Below, in pieces: positions 869-10,385 of a stretch of DNA of 12,679 nt. The position numbers and the translations under genes were made by a program. Location of the stretch: positions 1 to 12,679 of the forward strand of contig JAQURJ010000064.1 in the NCBI GenBank assembly GCA_028715705.1, written 5' to 3'. Every line of letters starts with the position of its first letter. Position 1 is the stretch's first letter. Source of the DNA: Phycisphaerae bacterium. GTDB lineage: Bacteria; Planctomycetota; Phycisphaerae; Sedimentisphaerales; Anaerobacaceae. The notes under the pieces are model-generated. The model was not told the origin of the DNA, did no database searches, and saw only the letters and a list, made by a program, of their open reading frames with translations.

Positions 869-3202
869 TTGACCATACGCAAAAAAATCGCGATTTTTGG
901 CCGCGTGCAGGGCGTTGGCTTCAGACCAGCCGTCCACCGCATAGCCGCTGACCTTGCCCTCACCGGTTTCGTCTTCAACGACAGCCGAGGTGTCACCATC
1001 GAACTCCAGGGTAACCCGACTGCAATAAACCAGTTTCTCACCCGCCTCACCGGCCCAGATAGGCCTCCGGCAAGCGATCTTAAAGAAATACAAACCCTTG
1101 AAATAGCGACAGTTATCAACGAATCCTGTTTCACTATCCAGCCCAGCGAAACGCTCGGCAGTCCCACCTCGCAGGTCACGCCAGACTTGGCTGTATGCTC
1201 CGATTGCCTCCGCGAAATGAACGACAAAACCGACTTTCGTTATCGTTATCCATTCATCAACTGCACAAACTGCGGCCCCCGCTATTCCATCGTAAAGGCC
1301 ATTCCATACGACCGCCCCAACACCACGATGTCACAATTCGCTATGTGCCCCCAGTGTTCAGCGCAGTACACCGATGTAACCAACCGCCGTTTTCACGCCC
1401 AGCCGGTCGCCTGCCCAGCCGATGGGCCCAAGATATGGCTTACCAATCCAGCCGGTAAAACCATCTGCTCCGGCACTGAGCAAACAATAGAAAAAGCCGC
1501 TTCACTGCTTAGAAACGGCCATATTGTTGCAATAAAAGGCATCGGCGGATTTCATCTTGCTGTTGACGCGTATAATAATGATGCGGTTGTGCGCCTTCGC
1601 CAAAGGAAGCATCGCGACCATAAGCCTTTTGCCATGATGGCCGCCTCGATAGAGACAATAAAGAAGCACGCCCTAGTTGACAGCCAAGCCGAAATATTAC
1701 TGAAAAGTGCGGCTGCGCCTATAGTTATACTTCCACAAAACCCAGATCACACCATTGCTCCCAACGTTGCGCAACAGGTTAATTCCTTTGGGTTTATGCT
1801 CTGTTACGCACCGCTGCATTTTCTTTTGTTCGAGCAGCGTCCCGAAGTTCTCGTTATGACAAGTGCGAATATCTCGGACGAACCGCTTATCTGCGATAAC
1901 GGCAAGACTCTGGAGCGGCTCGGCGATGTTGCGGACGCTTTTTTGATGCACGACCGCCAAATTTATCGCCAGCTTGATGATTCTATAATCCATTTTATTG
2001 ACGAACAGCCGGTAATGCTCCGCCGGGCAAGAGGTTATGTACCCACCCCTGTTTTTCTAAACGAAAATTGCCCAGACGATATTCTGGCAACCGGGGCGGA
2101 TATGAAAAACACTTTCTGCTTTGTAAAGGATGATTTCGCCTTATGTTCCGAGCATATCGGCGACCTTGAAGACGCAACAGTTTATCACCACTACACAGCT
2201 TCCATCGACCACCTTGCCGCTCTCTACGAGCATAAACCGGCGATAATCGCCCACGACCTGCACCCCGGTTACTTCTCCACGCAATACGCCCTCACTAAAA
2301 ATATCCGCGCCATCGGCATCCAGCACCACTGGGCGCATATCGCCTCCGTCCTTGCCGAGCATAATTATGACGGTTCGGTCATCGGTATCGAATGCGACGG
2401 CACAGGTTTTGGAACGGATGGTAATATCTGGGGCTGTGAAGTGATGATAGCCAACCTCGAAAAATTCGACCGCTTCGCTCATCTCGATTATTACACGCTG
2501 CCAGGCGGCGACAAAGCATCCAAAGAGGCTATACGACCCTTGATGGCGCTACTGAAAAAGGCGTTTGGTGATGGGTTTGAAATTTCCAAATTCGCCTGGC
2601 TTATGAACAGAATCGAACCCGATGTGCAAAAGCAGCAAATCATCCTCGCCCAGATCGAAAAAGGTATTAATACCGTCCAGACATCCAGCCTCGGTCGAGT
2701 TTTCGATGCTGTTGCAGCGGCTGTCGGGCTGGGCGGTTATAACTATTTCGAGGCGCAGCTTCCCATCGCTCTCGAAGCGATTACTCGCAAAAACTGCACT
2801 GAATGCTATGAATTCAATATTATTGACGATGGGAAACCAATCCGCCTTGACTTATGCATTACCATTCGGCAGATAATCGCTGATATCAAAAATTCGGTGG
2901 GTGCGGGTATGATCTCGACAAAATTTCATAACACCATCGCAGCGGCCTTGCTCGAACTTGCCCGAATCGTCCGCGAAAGAACCGGACTCGAAACGGTCGC
3001 TCTCAGCGGTGGGGTGTTTTGCAACAGATTTCTTGCCAATAGTCTCATTAAATCCTTGAAGGAAAGCGATTTTAACGTATTATTTAACCGCGAAGTACCT
3101 GCCAACGACGGCGGTATCGCACTAGGGCAGGCTGCCATAGCCGCAAATGTTATTTACAAGGAACGAAAAGATGTGTCTGGCTGTACCAGCAAGAATAATT
3201 GA
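869..3202 (+). CDS. hypF: [NiFe]-hydrogenase maturation carbamoyltransferase HypF
   Basis: 777 aa. N-terminal acylphosphatase motif 'VQGVGFRP'. Zn-finger 1 is 'CSDCL...(18)...CTNCGPR'. Zn-finger 2 is 'CPQC...(18)...CPADGP'. YrdC-like 'KGIGGFHLAVDA'. C-terminal Kae1/YgjD-like domain. TTG is the only canonical start codon placed ahead of the acylphosphatase motif. Confidence 0.93.
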   Translation: MTIRKKIAIFGRVQGVGFRPAVHRIAADLALTGFVFNDSRGVTIELQGNPTAINQFLTRLTGPDRPPASDLKEIQTLEIATVINESCFTIQPSETLGSPTSQVTPDLAVCSDCLREMNDKTDFRYRYPFINCTNCGPRYSIVKAIPYDRPNTTMSQFAMCPQCSAQYTDVTNRRFHAQPVACPADGPKIWLTNPAGKTICSGTEQTIEKAASLLRNGHIVAIKGIGGFHLAVDAYNNDAVVRLRQRKHRDHKPFAMMAASIETIKKHALVDSQAEILLKSAAAPIVILPQNPDHTIAPNVAQQVNSFGFMLCYAPLHFLLFEQRPEVLVMTSANISDEPLICDNGKTLERLGDVADAFLMHDRQIYRQLDDSIIHFIDEQPVMLRRARGYVPTPVFLNENCPDDILATGADMKNTFCFVKDDFALCSEHIGDLEDATVYHHYTASIDHLAALYEHKPAIIAHDLHPGYFSTQYALTKNIRAIGIQHHWAHIASVLAEHNYDGSVIGIECDGTGFGTDGNIWGCEVMIANLEKFDRFAHLDYYTLPGGDKASKEAIRPLMALLKKAFGDGFEISKFAWLMNRIEPDVQKQQIILAQIEKGINTVQTSSLGRVFDAVAAAVGLGGYNYFEAQLPIALEAITRKNCTECYEFNIIDDGKPIRLDLCITIRQIIADIKNSVGAGMISTKFHNTIAAALLELARIVRERTGLETVALSGGVFCNRFLANSLIKSLKESDFNVLFNREVPANDGGIALGQAAIAANVIYKERKDVSGCTSKNN

Positions 3203-3416
3203 ACTTGACGACAATGATAATGCTGTCGTGGATGCGATGGGCAACCGATGGCGGTGCAAGACGACGCTGCTTGCCGATGTGAAGCTCGGCGAGCTTGTGC
3301 TCGTGCACGCCGGTTTCGCGATAACCAAAGTCGATGAAGAGGAAGCCAAACAGACCTGGCAGCTTATTGCCGAACTTGACGATTTTAAGGATACCCCAAA
3401 CAAGATTTCAGGATAG
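3171..3416 (+). CDS. hypC: hydrogenase maturation chaperone HypC
   Basis: The protein begins 'MCLAVPARIIELDD' and the N-terminal Met-Cys is diagnostic of HypC/HupF. An AAGGA SD lies 7 nt upstream of ATG 3171. The gene overlaps the hypF 3' end by 32 nt. The ORF track's upstream start (3147) is unlikely. Confidence 0.88.
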   Translation: MCLAVPARIIELDDNDNAVVDAMGNRWRCKTTLLADVKLGELVLVHAGFAITKVDEEEAKQTWQLIAELDDFKDTPNKISG

Positions 3417-3422
3417 GACTAT

Positions 3423-4502
3423 ATGCTCCAAAGAATACTCAAGGCTCAGCAATCTATGGACAGCGCCTGCAACGCTCTGGGCAGGCAGATAAACATTATG
3501 GAAGTCTGCGGCACGCACACCGTTTCGATCTTTCGTAACGGCATCCGCCCGACTTTGTCGAAAAAACTAAAACTGCTGTCGGGGCCCGGCTGTCCGGTCT
3601 GTGTTACAGATCAGGCCTATATAGATACCTGCATAGAACTGTCGCAGAATCCAGATTGTATTATCACCACATACGGTGACATGATCCGAGTGCCGGGTAA
3701 AGGCGGTTCTCTCGAAACGCAACAATCTTCTCGAAATATCAAAGTTGTTCTAAGCGCAGAGGATGCTCTCGATTTCGCAAAGCAGAATCCTGAAAAAACA
3801 ATTGTTTTCGTTGCGGTGGGTTTCGAGACAACAACTCCCGCCACAGCCGTGGTCATAAAAGAGGCCGCAGAGCAGAACATAAAGAACTTCACGGTTTTGT
3901 GCAACCACAAGCGCGTAGTGCCTGCCATGAAAACTCTTCTCGCAGAAAAAAATCACAAGATCGACGCTTTCCTGTGTCCGGGGCACGTAAGCGTTATCAT
4001 CGGCAGTGACGCTTATAAACCGATTGTTGATGAATTCAAGCGTCCCTGCGTCGTCGGCGGTTTTGAGCCGATGCAGATAATCGAATCTCTTGCCGAGATA
4101 TGCCGACAGCTCGAAGAACAGAATCCGCAGGTAAAGTCACTTTACAGCGCAGCTGTCACTTCTCAAGGAAATCTGAAAGCTCAGAAACTTATCGATGAAA
4201 TTTTCACTCCCTGCGACGGTTACTGGCGAGGACTGGGTAAAATTACGACCGGCACATTGAAAATTAAGGACCAATACAGTGACTTTGACACTGCTGTCCG
4301 TTTCGGCATTGAAGAAAAATCGAACGAAGATGTCACCGGCTGCCGCTGCGGCGAGGTTCTTTGCGGGCTGATAGACCCGCAGGATTGCGGCCTTTTCGCA
4401 ACAGGCTGCACGCCGCAAAGCCCTGTCGGTCCGTGTATGGTAAGCTCCGAAGGTGCGTGCTCGGCTTGGTACAAGTATGGACGAAAGAGAGCTGCCCGAT
4501 GA
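3423..4502 (+). CDS. hypD: hydrogenase maturation factor HypD (Fe-S protein)
   Basis: Motifs 'CGTHT', 'GPGCPVC', 'GFETT', 'CPGHVS' and a C-terminal Cys cluster 'CRCGEVLCG...CG...GC...PC'. An AGGA SD precedes the ATG. Confidence 0.93.
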   Translation: MLQRILKAQQSMDSACNALGRQINIMEVCGTHTVSIFRNGIRPTLSKKLKLLSGPGCPVCVTDQAYIDTCIELSQNPDCIITTYGDMIRVPGKGGSLETQQSSRNIKVVLSAEDALDFAKQNPEKTIVFVAVGFETTTPATAVVIKEAAEQNIKNFTVLCNHKRVVPAMKTLLAEKNHKIDAFLCPGHVSVIIGSDAYKPIVDEFKRPCVVGGFEPMQIIESLAEICRQLEEQNPQVKSLYSAAVTSQGNLKAQKLIDEIFTPCDGYWRGLGKITTGTLKIKDQYSDFDTAVRFGIEEKSNEDVTGCRCGEVLCGLIDPQDCGLFATGCTPQSPVGPCMVSSEGACSAWYKYGRKRAAR

Positions 4503-5518
4503 AAGCAAACGACAAAATTCTACTCGCTCACGGCGGGGGCGGACAGCTTAGCGATTCGCTGATACACAATACCATCCTGCCGCGATTATCCAACGAAACA
4601 CTGAACGCCCTTGGCGATTCGGCCCTGCTGGATATAGACGGAACGAAACTATGCTTTACGACCGACAGCTATGTCGTAAAGCCGCTTTTTTTCAATGGAG
4701 GTGACATCGGAAAGCTGGCTGTTTGCGGAACGGTAAACGACCTCGCAGTAGCCGGAGCAAGACCCCTTGTTCTCTCGCTGGCCCTTATTATCGAAACAGG
4801 GTTTCCTATTGCCGACCTTGAAAGAATACTCGATTCAATTGCAAAAACAGCAGCTGAAGCCGGAGTAAAAGTTGTCACCGGTGACACTAAAACAGTAGAA
4901 ACGGGCGCAGCCGACAAAATCTTCATCAATACCGCAGGCATCGGCAAAAAACTTGACTGTGCAAATCTCGATACCAGCAGGGTGAAAGAGGGTGACAAGA
5001 TTCTCGTCAGCGGAACTATTGGCGACCATGGAATGACCCTTATATCCAAACGCGAGGGGATCGAATTTCAATCGACCCTGAAAAGCGATTGTGCGGCTCT
5101 GAACTCCTTAACGGTCAAACTGCTCGAAAATTTAAAAGACGAAATAAAGTTTCTTCGCGACCCAACTCGCGGGGGCATAGCGGTCACTTTAAACGATATC
5201 GCTCGCGGATCGGGACAGTCCGTTCTGATAAAACAAAGTGATATCCCTGTCAGTCCCAACGTTCAGGCTGCAGCGGACATGCTCGGTTTTGACATTCTTA
5301 ATATCGCCAACGAAGGAAAATTCATTGCTGTGGTAAGCTCTGATGCCGCCGAAAAAGCGGTTGCTATCTGCCGCAGTCACCGGCTGGGCAAAGATGCGAC
5401 CATCATCGGTGAAATTCAAAAATGTGTCGATGTCCCTACGGTAGAGATATTAACTGTTATCGGCGGCAAGCGAATTGTGCAGATGCCTTATGGGCGAGAA
5501 CTTCCGAGGATATGCTGA
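4499..5518 (+). CDS. hypE: hydrogenase maturation carbamoyl dehydratase HypE
   Basis: Begins 'MKANDKILLAHGGGG' and has a PurM-like fold signature. The C-terminus, '...PRIC', matches the conserved HypE terminal Cys that accepts the carbamoyl group. ATG 4499 overlaps the hypD stop (ATGA coupling). The longer upstream ORF start (4361) lies inside hypD and is rejected. Confidence 0.93.
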   Translation: MKANDKILLAHGGGGQLSDSLIHNTILPRLSNETLNALGDSALLDIDGTKLCFTTDSYVVKPLFFNGGDIGKLAVCGTVNDLAVAGARPLVLSLALIIETGFPIADLERILDSIAKTAAEAGVKVVTGDTKTVETGAADKIFINTAGIGKKLDCANLDTSRVKEGDKILVSGTIGDHGMTLISKREGIEFQSTLKSDCAALNSLTVKLLENLKDEIKFLRDPTRGGIAVTLNDIARGSGQSVLIKQSDIPVSPNVQAAADMLGFDILNIANEGKFIAVVSSDAAEKAVAICRSHRLGKDATIIGEIQKCVDVPTVEILTVIGGKRIVQMPYGRELPRIC

Positions 5519-5862
5519 TGCACGAAGCAGCCGTCGCGCAAAGCATTTTCGATACGGTAATGGCCGAAGCCCAAAAACAGAAGGGCAAACCCACCAAAGC
5601 AAAAATAACCTGCGGGACATTCGACGCCGTAAATGAAGAAATCCTCGCCTTTGCGTTTTCGGTTATTGCCAAAGATACTGTCGCAAAAGATATGAAAATA
5701 GGAGTCGAGCAAAAGCCGGTTATGGCATTATGTCGCCATTGTAAAAAAGAATTCAAATTTGATGTCACCAGTCCCAGTTGCGTTCACTGCGACTCTAACA
5801 GTTACAACATTCTGCCAGACCCGCCGCTGATACTCGAACAGATAATTTTTGAAACGGATTAA
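5518..5862 (+). CDS. hypA: hydrogenase nickel-insertion metallochaperone HypA
   Basis: The N-terminus 'MHEAAVAQSIFD' carries the MHE Ni-binding motif, which requires Met1-His2, so the start is set at 5518 rather than 5512 or 5422. Zn site is 'CRHC-x13-CVHC'. TGATG overlap with the hypE stop. Confidence 0.88.
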   Translation: MHEAAVAQSIFDTVMAEAQKQKGKPTKAKITCGTFDAVNEEILAFAFSVIAKDTVAKDMKIGVEQKPVMALCRHCKKEFKFDVTSPSCVHCDSNSYNILPDPPLILEQIIFETD

Positions 5863-5865
5863 TAA

Positions 5866-6528
5866 ATGGAAAAGCAAGTCCACATAGGCAAAAAAATACT
5901 CAGTGCAAACGAGGAATACGCCGCTATTAATGCAAAGTATCTGGCTGACAACGAAAAACTTTGTCTGAATATGATATCATCTCCCGGTTCTGGTAAGACG
6001 ACCATTCTTGCGCGAACAATCACCGACCTTCGCGGACAGATATCTATCGGCGTCATAGAAGGTGACATAAAAACGGAACTGGACGCAGAACGCATCAGGG
6101 CCGCGCAAGCGCCAGCCGTTCAGATAGAAACCCAGGGTTCGTGTCACCTCTCCGCACCGCAGGTACATTCGGCTCTGCGACAGCTTCCGGTTGACGACCT
6201 TGATATTATAATTATTGAAAACGTCGGCAATCTTGTTTGTCCTTCGGCTTTCGAGCTTGGTGAGAACGCGAAAGTCGTTGTGCTCAGCGTTCCTGAAGGC
6301 GATGATAAACCCGCCAAATATCCGGGGATATTTTCCAAAGCGAAAGTTCTTCTTGTTAATAAGATAGATTACCTTGCCATTTCCGGTTTTGACATTGAAA
6401 AGGTAAAATCAGATGCAAGATCATTGAATAAGGATATCGAGATATTTCCCATATCGGCTGTAACGGGCGAGGGAATGTCACTATGGTATGAATGGCTGAA
6501 AAGCTCCACTGCAAAATGCAAACAATGA
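5866..6528 (+). CDS. hypB: hydrogenase nickel-incorporation GTPase HypB (short form without N-terminal CxxCGC or His-rich region)
   Basis: P-loop 'SSPGSGKTT'. Metal site 'GSCHLSA'. 'ENVGNLVCP' and 'NKID' G-motifs. Only 3 nt separate it from the hypA stop. Confidence 0.9.
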   Translation: MEKQVHIGKKILSANEEYAAINAKYLADNEKLCLNMISSPGSGKTTILARTITDLRGQISIGVIEGDIKTELDAERIRAAQAPAVQIETQGSCHLSAPQVHSALRQLPVDDLDIIIIENVGNLVCPSAFELGENAKVVVLSVPEGDDKPAKYPGIFSKAKVLLVNKIDYLAISGFDIEKVKSDARSLNKDIEIFPISAVTGEGMSLWYEWLKSSTAKCKQ

Positions 6529-7321: not shown

Positions 7322-8821
7322 ATGGAACATCATTTCGAGGTTGATTCTTTCAGTAATTTTCGCAAGATGTTATTTTTACTTTTTGTTTCGTTTATTATAG
7401 TAATGGGGCTGATATTTGTCTCTGTAACCAATATCGGCGGCAATGAGGTCGGGATAGTGGAAAAGATGTTCGGCGGGGGGAAAATGGGTGCGGGCAAAAT
7501 ACTTGCTGTTAACGGCGAGAACGGCATTCAGGCGCAGGTTCTTGCGCCAGGGTGGCATTTTTTCTACTGGCCATGGCAGTATAAAATATCAAAAATCGCC
7601 GTAACCGAAATCGCTGAGGGCTCTGTCGGCCTTGTTCAGTCGGCAGACGGAATAAGCCTTCCTCCGGATACTATCTATGCGCCGGAATGGAAAGAACCGG
7701 ATCAGATGCTTAAAGCGGAATATTTTCTTGGCGAAGGGAACGGCTATCGCGGTCCACAGCTTAGCGTTTTGAAACCCGGTAAATACCGTCTCAACAGCCG
7801 GCTGTTCAAAATTGAAACAGTGCCGGTAACAAATGTCCGAGTCGGAACGGTGGCGGTTATCAAAAGCAATGTTGGAAAGGCGGTCGATTCGGATGAACGG
7901 CTTGTGGAAGTCGGTCAGCGGGGGATATGGAAAACGCCGCTGGGCGAGGGACAGTTTTATCTGAATACAAAAGCGTATGAAGTGACAATGATAGACACTC
8001 GTCAGGCAACGATAAGCTATACTCCTGAAAGAGATAAAAAAACAAATGCCGAGGCGCTAAGCCCTATGACGGTTCGTAGCAGCGACGGCTTTACTTTTCC
8101 GGTCGATGTTCGAGTGACATATCAAATAGACCGTGACAATGCCCCGCGTGTTGTCGCGACGGTGGGTGACGATGCTATGGTGCTTACAAAGCTGGTGACA
8201 CCTTCGGTTCGGGCTATATTTCGGAATAACGCCGAAAAAGTAAAGGCTCTCGATTACGTTCAACAGCGTTCGCAGCAGGAGCAGCAGAGTAATATACTTT
8301 TGAAAGAGGAACTGGGAAAGTATGGCGTGACATTGCTGGCGGTGCGAATAGGGGACGTGGGTAATGTAGAAACTCTTGGACAGTTGCTCAAGACGCAGAC
8401 TGACCGTGAGATTGCTCTTCAGGAACAAAAGACATTTGAGGAACAGCAGCGGGCTGCTGAAAAACAAAAGGCCCTGACGAAAACCACGCAGGAAGCCGAA
8501 GAGGAAAAACGGCTGGCCACGGCTTCATACAGCGTGAAGGTCGCAGAGCAGGAAAAACAGCGGGTTATCATAGAGGCACAGGCAGAGGCCGAGCAGATCA
8601 AACTTGTTGCCGACGCCAAGAGCCAGGCATATAAACTGATAGCCTCGGCTATTGGCGAAAATAACGCGGCATTGATCGAGATAATGAAGATAGCGTCCGA
8701 GCGGGGTATTAAGATAACGCCTGATGTTATGGTTGGCGGAACGGCTGGCGGTGCGACCGATGCACTGATGGGCACGATTCTGAAAGGGATGCTCAACGGT
8801 GAAGCTGTGAAAAAGAATTAG
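7322..8821 (+). CDS. flotillin-like SPFH/band-7 domain membrane protein (YqiK/FloT-like) with C-terminal E/Q/A-rich coiled-coil
   Basis: N-terminal TM segment 'MLFLLFVSFIIVMGLIFVSV'. SPFH-like core. A long 'EQQRAAEKQKALTKTTQEAEEEKR...QAEAEQIKLVADAKSQAY' repeat region is typical of flotillins. Good SD. Confidence 0.75.
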   Translation: MEHHFEVDSFSNFRKMLFLLFVSFIIVMGLIFVSVTNIGGNEVGIVEKMFGGGKMGAGKILAVNGENGIQAQVLAPGWHFFYWPWQYKISKIAVTEIAEGSVGLVQSADGISLPPDTIYAPEWKEPDQMLKAEYFLGEGNGYRGPQLSVLKPGKYRLNSRLFKIETVPVTNVRVGTVAVIKSNVGKAVDSDERLVEVGQRGIWKTPLGEGQFYLNTKAYEVTMIDTRQATISYTPERDKKTNAEALSPMTVRSSDGFTFPVDVRVTYQIDRDNAPRVVATVGDDAMVLTKLVTPSVRAIFRNNAEKVKALDYVQQRSQQEQQSNILLKEELGKYGVTLLAVRIGDVGNVETLGQLLKTQTDREIALQEQKTFEEQQRAAEKQKALTKTTQEAEEEKRLATASYSVKVAEQEKQRVIIEAQAEAEQIKLVADAKSQAYKLIASAIGENNAALIEIMKIASERGIKITPDVMVGGTAGGATDALMGTILKGMLNGEAVKKN

Positions 8822-8914
8822 TTCCTGGTTGCTATTCTGGATTCGCGCTTTCGCTGGAATAACAATATACTTTAATGTATTTTTTCAACAGTTAATAAAA
8901 ACCGCGTGGGCAAC

Positions 8915-8931
8915 ATCCGCTAAAAGCGGAT
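8915..8931. terminator. short hairpin ATCCGCT-AAA-AGCGGAT between convergent genes (possible weak bidirectional terminator)
   Basis: Perfect 7-bp inverted repeat in the 135-bp gap between the flotillin gene (+) and the small membrane gene (-). The flanking runs are A-rich (+) and not clearly T-rich (-), so confidence is low. Confidence 0.22.
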
Positions 8932-8956
8932 AAAATTGTCCACCCTAAGAAACTTA

Positions 8957-9286
8957 TTACAGGTCTTGAATTTCGGATTTGCGGATTTCGTTTTCGATGC
9001 GGTTCTGGCTGTCCCAGATAGTAAAATACATAGTCAAACGCACATGCGCCCATATTTTTATAACAGCGACATTCACAATTCCCGTAAGCGCAAGGAACAA
9101 GCCCATAAAATGCTGTTTCAAATTATTGTCAGGTGCATCAATGAGAACATTAAGCCCCCAGATAGCAATTCCAACTGATATAAGCAGGAAAATCCAATAA
9201 GCTATTTCTGTCTTTTGGACTTTGTTCAGAATGTCATCGCATGTCGGTGTTTCTTTAAAACTCTGTGCCCAGTTAAATAATCTCAT
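8957..9286 (-). CDS. small two-TM membrane protein, paralog A (109 aa), C-terminus ...RKSEIQDL
   Basis: Predicted TM1 is 'IAYWIFLLISVGIAIWGLNVLI' and TM2 is 'HFMGLFLALTGIVNVAVIKIWA'. A charged amphipathic tail follows. A GGAG SD lies 8 nt upstream. It is the last gene of a 3-gene minus-strand operon and is paralogous to the upstream gene (shared 'ILNKVQKTEIAYW' / 'ILHKVERAEIMYNVW', 'WD', terminal 'QDL'). Confidence 0.6.
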   Translation of the reverse strand: MRLFNWAQSFKETPTCDDILNKVQKTEIAYWIFLLISVGIAIWGLNVLIDAPDNNLKQHFMGLFLALTGIVNVAVIKIWAHVRLTMYFTIWDSQNRIENEIRKSEIQDL

Positions 9287-9303
9287 AATATGTCTCCCTA
9301 AAA

Positions 9304-9630
9304 TTAAAGGTCTTGTGCATTCGTTTTTCTTTCTTCACTTTCCAGAAGTTCCATCTTGTCCCAAAGGGCTTTATACCTTTCCAGTTTGAGATGGCTTTTT
9401 ATCGAATTCTCAATCAAACCACCCACACTGCATACATACAAGGCTAACCCCAAAAAAGTGCCTTTGCTGCTCGATGGTGCTAACAAAATAATTGCTATAC
9501 CTAAAAATGTCATAAGCGTGTAACATCCGCCCCAAACATTGTACATAATTTCAGCCCTCTCGACTTTGTGAAGAATCTCTTCTTTCGAGCAGGTTTCTTG
9601 AATAGTATCTTTCCACTTTAAGAACTTCAT
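9304..9630 (-). CDS. small two-TM membrane protein, paralog B (108 aa), C-terminus ...RKTNAQDL
   Basis: Predicted TM1 is 'VWGGCYTLMTFLGIAIILLA' and TM2 is 'GTFLGLALYVCSVGGLI'. The charged tail is 'KSHLKLERYKALWDKMELLESEERKTNAQDL'. A GGAG SD lies 8-9 nt upstream. It lies 22 nt downstream of the HTH gene and 17 nt upstream of paralog A. Confidence 0.6.
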   Translation of the reverse strand: MKFLKWKDTIQETCSKEEILHKVERAEIMYNVWGGCYTLMTFLGIAIILLAPSSSKGTFLGLALYVCSVGGLIENSIKSHLKLERYKALWDKMELLESEERKTNAQDL

Positions 9631-9652
9631 AATTTTGTCTCCCTAAAAATAT

Positions 9653-9949
9653 TTAGCTTTCTTTATCTTTTTCAAATTCTTTTATCAGTATTCTCGCGAT
9701 TGAAATGTCGAGTTTTCCTTCGGCTGCGAGCGTTTGCACTTTCTGGTGGAACGGCGTTTTCGCTTTGTGTGAATCGAGGATGCGTACCTTGTCGATAAGA
9801 CGATTCAGCCGGATGCGGACGGTCGGGTAGCTGATGCCGTACTGATTGGCGACATCCTTCAGCGACCCCGAAGCCAGCAGCAGCCGCTTGATAAACTGCC
9901 AGTCCTCTTCGCTCAATTCCTTAGCCCATTGCGGTATATTTTCACTCAT
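9653..9949 (-). CDS. small HTH protein, DUF2089-like / sigma-70-region-4-like DNA-binding domain (98 aa)
   Basis: 'LSEEDWQFIKRLLLASGSLKDVANQYGISYPTVRIRLNRLIDKV' matches the DUF2089 C-terminal HTH consensus (L.EE..F...FL...GN.KE.E..LGISYPTV+.RL...I). It lacks the N-terminal Zn-ribbon seen in many family members. First gene of the minus-strand operon. Confidence 0.6.
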   Translation of the reverse strand: MSENIPQWAKELSEEDWQFIKRLLLASGSLKDVANQYGISYPTVRIRLNRLIDKVRILDSHKAKTPFHQKVQTLAAEGKLDISIARILIKEFEKDKES

Positions 9950-10019
9950 AATAAAAACCCATAACCTTTAATATTCTTAAATATCACTTTAACTTTTTTA
10001 AAGCAAGGGAAAACTTAAT

Positions 10020-10037
10020 AAAATTAAAAATAATTTT
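10020..10037. promoter_or_regulatory. inverted repeat AAAATTA-N4-TAATTTT (candidate operator) about 70-90 bp upstream of the HTH gene start
   Basis: Perfect 7-bp inverted repeat read in the AT-rich spacer. 'TAATTTTAA' recurs at 10031-10039 and 10081-10089, and a second inverted repeat, ACTAATT(10079-10085)...AATTAGT(10104-10110), is nearby. Confidence 0.25.
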
Positions 10038-10321
10038 AATATTGTTAAAGATTAGCGGGTGACAAATCAGTTATACATACTAATTTTAACAAAAATAGTA
10101 TATAATTAGTATTTCATAACATTTGTTATTGAAAAGACTTATGCATCAGTCACTCTTTTAAAAACATCGTTTTGAAAAAAAACCGGCACATCGTTTAATA
10201 TGTTTGGTTGTGCTTAAAACCGAAGGTTAGAAACAGTTTTCCAATTTTCTATAAAATGTTGAAAAATAGCGATTTGCTTTGACTGCGAGGGGTAATTTTG
10301 TTAAAAGAAAGAGTTTATTTT

Positions 10322-10365
10322 GATGGTGGGAGGTATTGCGCCTGCGATGTGGTAGTTTTCGCAGG
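10322..10365 (+). promoter_or_regulatory. pheA 5' leader: 11-codon mini-ORF (MMVGGIAPAMW) whose stop is embedded in a hairpin CCTGCGA-N11-TCGCAGG
   Basis: ATG ATG GTG ... TGG TAG at 10322-10357. A 7-bp GC-rich inverted repeat lies at 10341-10347 / 10359-10365. A TTGACT(10277-10282)-N17-TAAAAG promoter-like element lies upstream. Function is uncertain. Confidence 0.25.
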
Positions 10366-10385
10366 GCAGGTATTACTGAAAGTCT

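Follow-up and report, generated by a model that had tools for sequence, protein, structure and literature searches.

What is the function of a small DNA-binding protein encoded directly in front of two small membrane proteins, in a planctomycete and amid housekeeping genes? In the 12,679-nucleotide stretch examined here (the window, a contig of a Phycisphaerae metagenome-assembled genome, JAQURJ010000064.1), three genes separated by gaps of 22 and 17 nucleotides (nt) lie on the minus strand, and every other sizeable gene (hypF, hypC, hypD, hypE, hypA, hypB, a HAD hydrolase gene, an SPFH/Band-7 gene, pheA and tpiA) lies on the plus strand. The open reading frames (ORFs) agree to the nucleotide with a first-pass annotation made from the letters of this DNA. 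The three genes encode a helix-turn-helix (HTH) protein of the short DUF2089 kind, followed by two proteins with two transmembrane (TM) segments each, which we call type B and type A. We propose that they form a self-repressing operon in which the two small inner-membrane proteins protect or monitor the cytoplasmic membrane and in which their C-terminal tails signal to the repressor, a proposal to which we give an even chance of being correct.

The regulator and its palindrome array

The first-pass annotation suspected a self-contained regulated unit, and two observations bear this out: the combination of an HTH gene with membrane genes recurs in about 40 Planctomycetota loci whose neighboring genes are unrelated, and the unit carries a conserved operator array of its own. 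Four palindromes of the form TTTAA-N5-TTAAA, designated O1 to O4, precede the HTH gene (Table 1). In the window the pattern TTTAA-N5-TTAAR has seven strand matches, representing four sites, against 0.12 expected, and all of them fall within the 83 bp from 9967 to 10049. We collected about 45 related loci, and in the 39 non-redundant ones used for counting, the 4.8 kb of HTH-upstream DNA contain 55 strict palindromes versus three in the other 211 kb, the three exceptions being the displaced promoter of a single locus. Both the position of the array and its 21/26/21 bp spacing are conserved across related loci. An alignment of 28 non-redundant upstream regions contains a nearly invariant block, cTTGCTTTAAtAAaATTAAAG-TGTATaTTAATAAtaTtAAAG, also given as the consensus cTTGCTTTAAtAAaATTAAAG-TGTATaTT, which resolves into the four palindrome copies; the O3 sequence, CTTTAATAAAATTAAAG, is nearly invariant among relatives and occurs in Subdoligranulum too. 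The displaced promoter belongs to a locus from a hypersaline lake (L004/L016, positions 1300-1520), where the HTH start is preceded by three strict palindromes at a distance of 165-212 nt, versus the usual 32-105 nt, and where extra sequence is inserted between operator and HTH gene.

O3 and O4 overlap a conserved -35/-10-like element, so that a protein bound there would occlude RNA polymerase, which is the geometry of a repressor. Because HTH and operator array are conserved together, we propose, and with good confidence, that the DUF2089 protein represses its own operon through O1-O4. Site pairs 21 bp apart would suit a dimer of dimers.

The identity of the regulator, as first annotated, was confirmed by profile search. 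It matches the Pfam family PF09862 (DUF2089-HTH) over residues 12-55 with E = 6.5e-17 and 61.4 bits (cutoff 33.4), and it also matches Pfam families of sigma-70 region 4, more weakly. The protein contains no cysteine and its HTH begins at residue ~12, as is the case in all close relatives, and it thus lacks the N-terminal Zn ribbon of canonical full-length DUF2089. It consists of a sigma-region-4/GerE-type HTH (residues ~12-59) and a C-terminal two-helix domain; an AlphaFold2 model (pLDDT 82.5) places helices at 14-25, 30-37, 41-59, 66-76 and 82-97, and the conserved residues F67, G78, L80 and A85 lie in the C-terminal two-helix region. Full-length DUF2089 has been dissected into a Zn ribbon, an HTH and a SHOCT-like two-helix domain in the PSP paper (Ravi et al., mSystems 2024), and it is from that dissection, not from a profile match, that we borrow the label SHOCT-like for helices 66-76 and 82-97. 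To judge by the model, this domain is a plausible element for oligomerization or partner binding. Foldseek comparison of the model with the PDB ranked sigma region 4 (3hug), LuxR-type HTHs and the plasmid repressors KorA and ArdK highest, none of them significant (best E = 0.12); a sequence search of the PDB found nothing, and matches to PADLOC were noise at E ~0.01. The protein has 779 relatives, of which the top 120 are 96-106 amino acids (aa) long and 69-94% identical to it, and it is more strongly conserved than the type A membrane protein, whose 52 close homologues are 49-72% identical.

The membrane proteins and their common tail

Types A and B share 29% identity over their full length (E = 2e-18) and a final QDL, in agreement with their first description as paralogues. 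Each has two hydrophobic segments, at ~31-50 and 59-82, and since lysine and arginine number 4-6 in each terminal segment versus one in the loop, both termini are predicted to be cytoplasmic. The AlphaFold2 model of type A (pLDDT 81) is a helical hairpin of residues 16-50 and 56-108, for which Foldseek found only generic helical hairpins in the PDB (best E = 0.65). That these are real genes is supported by close homologues in a word-indexed search (five for type B, 52 for type A) and by 79 cluster representatives recovered at E<=0.001 when 1.84 billion representatives were searched exhaustively with a profile, numbers that indicate a small family. The six genome matches are all from Planctomycetota, mostly Phycisphaerae. 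The tandem duplication of the two genes is recorded in short DNA repeats spaced by ~345 nt: the block TTTTAGGGAGACA precedes both, and the direct repeats D5 and D7 recur at 345-nt spacing with 79-94% identity.

Conservation in type A is concentrated at the two cytoplasmic ends, that is, in the N-terminal 30 residues and the tail, and the TM helices are variable; the invariant positions are M1, F4, W6, F10, P14, T15 and C16 at one end and W91, N95, E100, I101, K103 and D108 at the other. The shared QDL ending is present in both proteins, as first noticed, and forms the last part of a longer tail motif that the first-pass annotation missed, a C-terminal amphipathic helix of ~15-20 residues ending in ...E-x-x-K-x-x-A/I-x-D-L that is found on otherwise different membrane scaffolds. 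In related planctomycete modules, where every membrane gene has it, it takes the form ...E[IM]xK[SM][EQ]AxD[LI], with examples such as ...EIRKSEAADL, ...EMRKMQAKDL, ...ERKTNAQDL and ...ELNQMKAKDL. A separate observation concerns P0112, a 983-aa protein from the exhaustive profile search, which matches profile positions 9-34 in eight separate stretches and could be either a repeat protein built on the N-terminal cytoplasmic motif of the 2-TM family or a spurious low-complexity match.

Neither type A nor type B belongs to a Pfam, NCBIfam or PADLOC family. The first-pass annotation had likened them to holins or antiholins, and a holin/antiholin pair left by a prophage would indeed have their size, two TM segments, N-in/C-in topology and charged C-terminus, as class II holins do. 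These features are generic and not diagnostic, and the searches speak against such an origin: a scan of 2.9 million viral contigs with a broad family alignment returned no relative, matches to PHROGs are no better than E = 0.0085 and concern families of unknown function, and the window and the about 45 related loci are free of endolysin, spanin and other phage genes. With the cytoplasmic ends, and not the TM helices, as the most conserved parts, we regard this explanation as scarcely credible.

Table 1. Positions of the three genes and of associated elements in the window
Feature	Position	Strand	Description
HTH regulator gene	9653-9949	minus	98 aa, short DUF2089 protein
Membrane protein type B gene	9304-9630	minus	108 aa, 2 TM, predicted N-in/C-in; tail ...LWDKMELLESEERKTNAQDL
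Membrane protein type A gene	8957-9286	minus	109 aa, 2-TM helical hairpin; tail ...IWDSQNRIENEIRKSEIQDL
Operator O1 (putative)	10035-10049		Palindrome TTTAACAATATTAAA (TTTAA-N5-TTAAA); starts 100 nt upstream of the HTH ATG
Operator O2 (putative)	10014-10028		TTTAATTTTATTAAG; starts 79 nt before ATG; center 21 bp from O1
Operator O3 (putative)	9988-10002		TTTAAAAAAGTTAAA; starts 53 nt before ATG; center 26 bp from O2; between -35-like and -10-like elements
Operator O4 (putative)	9967-9981		TTTAAGAATATTAAA; starts 32 nt before ATG; center 25 nt before ATG, 21 bp from O3
-35-like hexamer	10001-10006	minus	TTGCTT; conserved across loci; putative promoter
-10-like element	9979-9985	minus	AT-rich; GATATTT here, TATATT in most relatives; putative
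Type B Shine-Dalgarno-like sequence	9639-9643	minus	GGGAG, inside the repeated intergenic block TTTTAGGGAGACA
Type A Shine-Dalgarno-like sequence	9294-9298	minus	GGGAG, upstream of type A
Type B tail codons	9307-9366	minus	Last 20 residues; conserved cytoplasmic motif ending DL
Type A tail codons	8960-9019	minus	Last 20 residues; conserved cytoplasmic motif ending DL
Possible terminator (tentative)	8897-8943	minus	Long stem-loop 8906-8943, then U-run 8897-8901

Relatives in planctomycetes and on Gram-positive plasmids

Among the planctomycete loci, every one with enough upstream DNA has a 97-105-aa DUF2089 gene directly upstream of its membrane genes. The latter number one to four per module and differ in their membrane part, of which there are at least three types. 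Type A is the commonest HTH partner and the sole membrane gene in about 16 non-redundant loci; type B is the sole partner in one (L049); and type C (MEQWFD...), which is 113 aa long and has a Gly-zipper and about three hydrophobic segments, is found either by itself or upstream of type A. As many as four membrane genes, including one for a 73-aa single-TM protein, are found in L035 and L046. The tail is thus carried by at least three scaffolds, namely types A/B, type C, and the 1-TM and other forms of L046. The contig of L046 is too short to reach the regulator gene; its positions 1-957 hold four tandem small membrane genes with dissimilar membrane parts, the complete ones ending in ..KAKDL, ..KAQDL or ..EAQDL.

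Genes next to the module vary by locus and include gyrA/ndk/GH130, GntR-ABC/mutS, mcsB, priA/BlaR-like, hyp genes and others. This bears on the suggestion, also made in the first-pass annotation, that the small 2-TM proteins with their charged tails are an anti-phage, abortive-infection effector pair under a dedicated regulator. Defense-like neighbors do occur, in two loci only (RloB/AAA_21 in L047 and HEPN/MNT in L050), but no defense-island context recurs, the neighbors being mostly housekeeping genes such as gyrA, mutS, priA, hyp genes and pheA; no PADLOC model matches, and nothing that could act as sensor or enzyme is conserved alongside the module. We therefore consider abortive infection very improbable. 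At 3001-6303 of L050, in a 397-kb metagenome contig, a pair of HTH and type C genes directly adjoins hypB-hypA-hypE-hypD, in partial synteny with the window, where the HAD and SPFH genes intervene; the HEPN/nucleotidyltransferase pair lies upstream.

Relatives of the regulator are also found far outside the planctomycetes. A tblastn search of a plasmid collection returned 101 records, all Gram-positive, from Bacillus, Priestia, Lactiplantibacillus, Lactococcus, Staphylococcus, Enterococcus, Corynebacterium and Subdoligranulum, encoding DUF2089 proteins of 90-100 aa with 37-49% identity over >90% of their length. In each plasmid record that was opened, the next gene encodes a multi-TM protein of ~93-108 aa, and the tails of these Firmicutes partners (..KKELEKMKISDI, ..RELDKMIGKDLK, ..KEMEKMKAKDHISQ, ..KEMDIMKTKDL, ..KELDKMKIYDMK, ..KNKMLSKDLTDEKNKK and ..KQLEKMNVQDL) follow the pattern ..E[LM]xKMxxxD[LIM]. 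Some of them continue for a few residues past the D-L. The tail can thus do without a free C-terminal carboxylate, and a C-degron or PDZ-type signal becomes less likely. When profiles were compared with profiles, the Firmicutes partners were related to type C at 84% probability over the last TM segment and the tail; like type C, they belong to no family in Pfam, NCBIfam, PADLOC or PHROGs. Palindromes of the TTTAA-N5-TTAAA type lie upstream of most Firmicutes pairs, the Staphylococcus and E. casseliflavus copies having been judged by eye only; the one in Subdoligranulum, TTGACTTTAATAAAATTAAAGTATATAT, is almost identical to the planctomycete consensus, and no palindrome was found upstream of the L. 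plantarum plasmid pair. As a further observation, an S. epidermidis plasmid (L053, 1698-2260) has a second pair directly upstream of the DUF2089 pair, encoding an 86-aa XRE-type HTH protein and a 98-aa membrane protein.

Several of the plasmid pairs adjoin leaderless bacteriocin genes of the aureocin A53 or enterocin L50 family together with genes for PH-domain proteins and ABC transporters, and some have no annotated bacteriocin. The same pair is present in the loci for aureocin A53 (AucIB/AucIA), bawcin (BawC/BawB), saprophyticin S (orf9/orf8), toyoncin T35 (ORF12/ORF11) and enterocin DD14 (DdC/DdD), and on plasmids of L. plantarum, Terribacillus and Priestia. The first-pass verdict that the module is not recognizable as a described system is accordingly wrong in part, as pairs of the AucIB/AucIA, BawC/BawB and DdC/DdD type have been described. 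A short DUF2089 protein with a small membrane protein is an immunity-associated pair of an already known kind whose mechanism is poorly understood, and it figures in many papers on leaderless bacteriocins as of 'unknown function' or 'possible immunity'.

In AucIB/AucIA-type pairs, a ~90-100-aa DUF2089 protein without Zn ribbon adjoins a multi-TM protein of ~90-100 aa with a basic, helical cytoplasmic C-terminus, and the regulator gene is adjacent to and co-oriented with a multi-TM gene for ~90-110 aa, as in the window. We compared AucIA and AucIB themselves by their published descriptions; the comparison at the level of sequence was made with the plasmid copies, which have an HTH protein 37-49% identical to ours, a DL-type tail and upstream palindromes. 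The membrane partners differ, in that those of the Firmicutes have three TM segments and those in the window two, with resemblance in the tail only. A bacteriocin gene, PH-domain proteins and an ABC exporter usually accompany the Firmicutes partners. Neither the window nor the called genes of nine related planctomycete-type loci include a bacteriocin structural gene, a PH-domain (bPH_2) protein or a dedicated ABC exporter, and a small ORF beside the module that might encode a leaderless bacteriocin was sought in the window and in L001 with no convincing candidate.

DdC/DdD of Enterococcus faecalis likewise combines a DUF2089 protein with a small multi-TM protein that has a prominent cytoplasmic helix, and DdD is the only membrane partner of such pairs whose function, immunity, has genetic support. 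The pair differs from that in the window in that DdC is a divergent DUF2089 protein and in that both genes are embedded in ddABCDEFGHIJ. According to a study of June 2026, the loss of ddD is tolerated only where the bacteriocin genes are missing, DdD confers immunity and, supplied from a multicopy plasmid, restores resistance, and DdC is left without an assigned role (PMC13262744). The genes ddC-J are down-regulated upon deletion of the bacteriocin genes, which is what a peptide-sensing regulator would lead one to expect. At the aureocin A53 locus, full immunity to the bacteriocin requires AucIA and AucIB.

These results also bear on a toxin-antitoxin interpretation, in which the membrane proteins would be depolarizing toxins and the HTH protein an antitoxin that neutralizes them through their tails and autorepresses together with them. 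The regulator-first order, palindromic autoregulatory operators and variable genomic context would fit such a system, as would the many homologous pairs on Firmicutes plasmids, including those without an annotated bacteriocin, and the occasional RloB/AAA_21 or HEPN/MNT neighbors. Nevertheless, the relative that has been tested, DdD, is protective and not toxic, AucIA and AucIB raise immunity, and PADLOC yields no match. One regulator for up to four different membrane genes would be atypical of a toxin-antitoxin system, and identities of 69-94% among the 120 closest HTH relatives suggest a conserved cellular function instead of a selfish element. On this evidence we find the interpretation quite improbable.

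A different comparison is offered by full-length DUF2089 proteins, which occur in Toastrack, PspC and LiaI-LiaF-TM neighborhoods and have been proposed to transduce membrane-associated signals to transcription (Ravi et al., mSystems 2024). They share with the window protein the HTH, the SHOCT-like domain and operonic membrane proteins. In contrast, the window protein lacks the Zn ribbon and its partners are novel small proteins that have a tail in common; no Toastrack (DUF4097/DUF2154), PspC or LiaI-LiaF-TM Pfam domain was found in the module or the window.

A proposed circuit and the surroundings of the module

Taken as a circuit, the module may operate as follows. An oligomer of the DUF2089 protein, assembled through its SHOCT-like two-helix domain, would bind the four palindromes over its own promoter and repress the operon, a step for which the case is strong. 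In the membrane, the two helical hairpins would present both of their ends to the cytoplasm, and the tail, judging from its co-conservation with regulator and operator, may be a docking or signaling element for the repressor through which transcription responds to the state of the membrane proteins. Exposure to a membrane-active peptide or to other bilayer stress, for instance, might cause the tails to capture or release the repressor, and the operon would be induced. By analogy with AucIB/AucIA and DdC/DdD, the operon would make the cell tolerant of cationic peptides that damage membranes, or of related envelope stress, and would do so here uncoupled from any bacteriocin production genes. We propose the dialogue between tail and repressor because HTH, operator and tail are constant across phyla while membrane scaffolds are swapped, and the repressor is the most economical partner for the tail because it is the only other conserved component.

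In a more general and more tentative form, the proposal would make the tail (...E-[ILM]-x-K-[SM]-x-A-x-D-L, ~20 residues) a portable docking element by which interchangeable small proteins with one, two or three TM segments, one to four to an operon, would take up or let go of a SHOCT-bearing DUF2089 repressor on the cytoplasmic side of the membrane; this we hold to be possible, on the doubtful side. If true, it would amount to an unrecognized conversion of membrane state into transcription that spans phyla (Planctomycetota, Bacilli and Clostridia), and it would supply the missing regulatory logic of leaderless-bacteriocin immunity operons. HAAS-PadR modules and pairs of membrane anti-sigma and sigma factors offer an analogy of mechanism only: there too, a cytoplasmic helical element common to exchangeable membrane modules couples them to one cytoplasmic DNA-binding protein, and anti-sigma factors sequester sigma region 4, which the window HTH resembles (3hug). 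Unlike those systems, to which it has no sequence or family relation, the module in the window has as its coupling element a tail of ~20 residues, and the interaction is putative.

It is also possible, albeit unlikely in our view, that the membrane proteins are effectors without feedback. The DUF2089 protein would then be an ordinary autorepressor that responds to an unrelated signal, and the tail would serve the membrane proteins themselves, in oligomerization, in contacts with lipid head groups or in peptide capture. AF3 docking puts the cytoplasmic helix of DdD on the bacteriocin peptide DdA (PMC13262744), the presence of two to four tail-bearing genes in some modules could mean co-assembly via the common helix, and the model of type A has one long helix that continues from TM2 and would be suited to coiled-coil packing. 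However, the tail stays constant across phyla, along with HTH and operator, while scaffolds, and presumably threats, change, which would be unexpected for a self-interacting or peptide-specific helix, and there is no bacteriocin gene near the planctomycete modules.

A number of points weigh against the self-repressing, tail-signaling operon that we favor. The -35 and -10 elements were assigned by eye from conservation, and a generic sigma-70 scan missed them. DdD, as the only functionally tested partner, ends in ..KKYLKEKFFNEK, with neither a DL motif nor a TTTAA-N5-TTAAA palindrome upstream of its pair, and its cytoplasmic helix has been proposed to bind the bacteriocin, not DdC (PMC13262744). 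By hhalign, the Firmicutes partners match type A with 11% probability and in the tail only, types A and B showing no significant similarity to them otherwise. [quoted passage not shown]

With such peptides mined from those two phyla only, and with no bacteriocin-like ORF, PH-domain protein or ABC exporter at the module or in the planctomycete loci whose called genes were listed, the operon in this organism would either protect as an orphan system or sense membrane state more generally. In the literature on these loci we did not find stated the four-copy TTTAA-N5-TTAAA operator with its 21/26/21 bp spacing, conserved from Planctomycetota to Clostridia and Bacilli; the tail motif common to at least three membrane scaffolds; or a bacteriocin-free planctomycete version with 2-TM partners, outside the Gram-positives. 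Operator, tail and bacteriocin-free occurrence point to a general device for membrane-to-DNA signaling or protection instead of a bacteriocin-specific accessory, and the short planctomycete operon offers a minimal system in which such a device could be tested.

Downstream of the type A gene, the candidate terminator has a predicted RNA fold with a minimum free energy of -23 kcal/mol (z = -2.4), and a consensus terminator scan did not call it. The HTH gene is host-like in composition (GC 0.485; GC at third codon positions, GC3, 0.60), and the membrane genes are lower (GC 0.39, GC3 0.42-0.44). This low GC is a poor argument for horizontal transfer, as the regulator is host-like and hypB also has a GC3 of 0.44.

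Convergent with the module is the SPFH/Band-7 (flotillin-like) gene, which encodes 499 aa (7322-8821, plus strand). Band-7 proteins have been tied to membrane-stress systems (Ravi et al., mSystems 2024); we rejected this one as a functional partner, since such a gene adjoins the module in none of the other loci examined. Further away, a complete hydrogenase-maturation operon, hypF-hypC-hypD-hypE-hypA-hypB, occupies 869-6528 on the plus strand, with no hydrogenase structural genes within the window. A minus-strand ORF of 148 aa at 384-830 has a weak, sub-cutoff match to a DDE transposase family (PF01609, E = 0.0015) and is probably the remnant of an insertion sequence at the contig edge. Scanning the window for Rfam families and tRNAs returned nothing. 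Between the operator array and pheA lies a spacer of ~335 nt (10050-10385) with 29% GC, no Rfam match and no convincing ORF; it contains several inverted repeats, among them 10084-10097/10293-10306, whose arms are 93% complementary, and 10077-10088/10101-10112.

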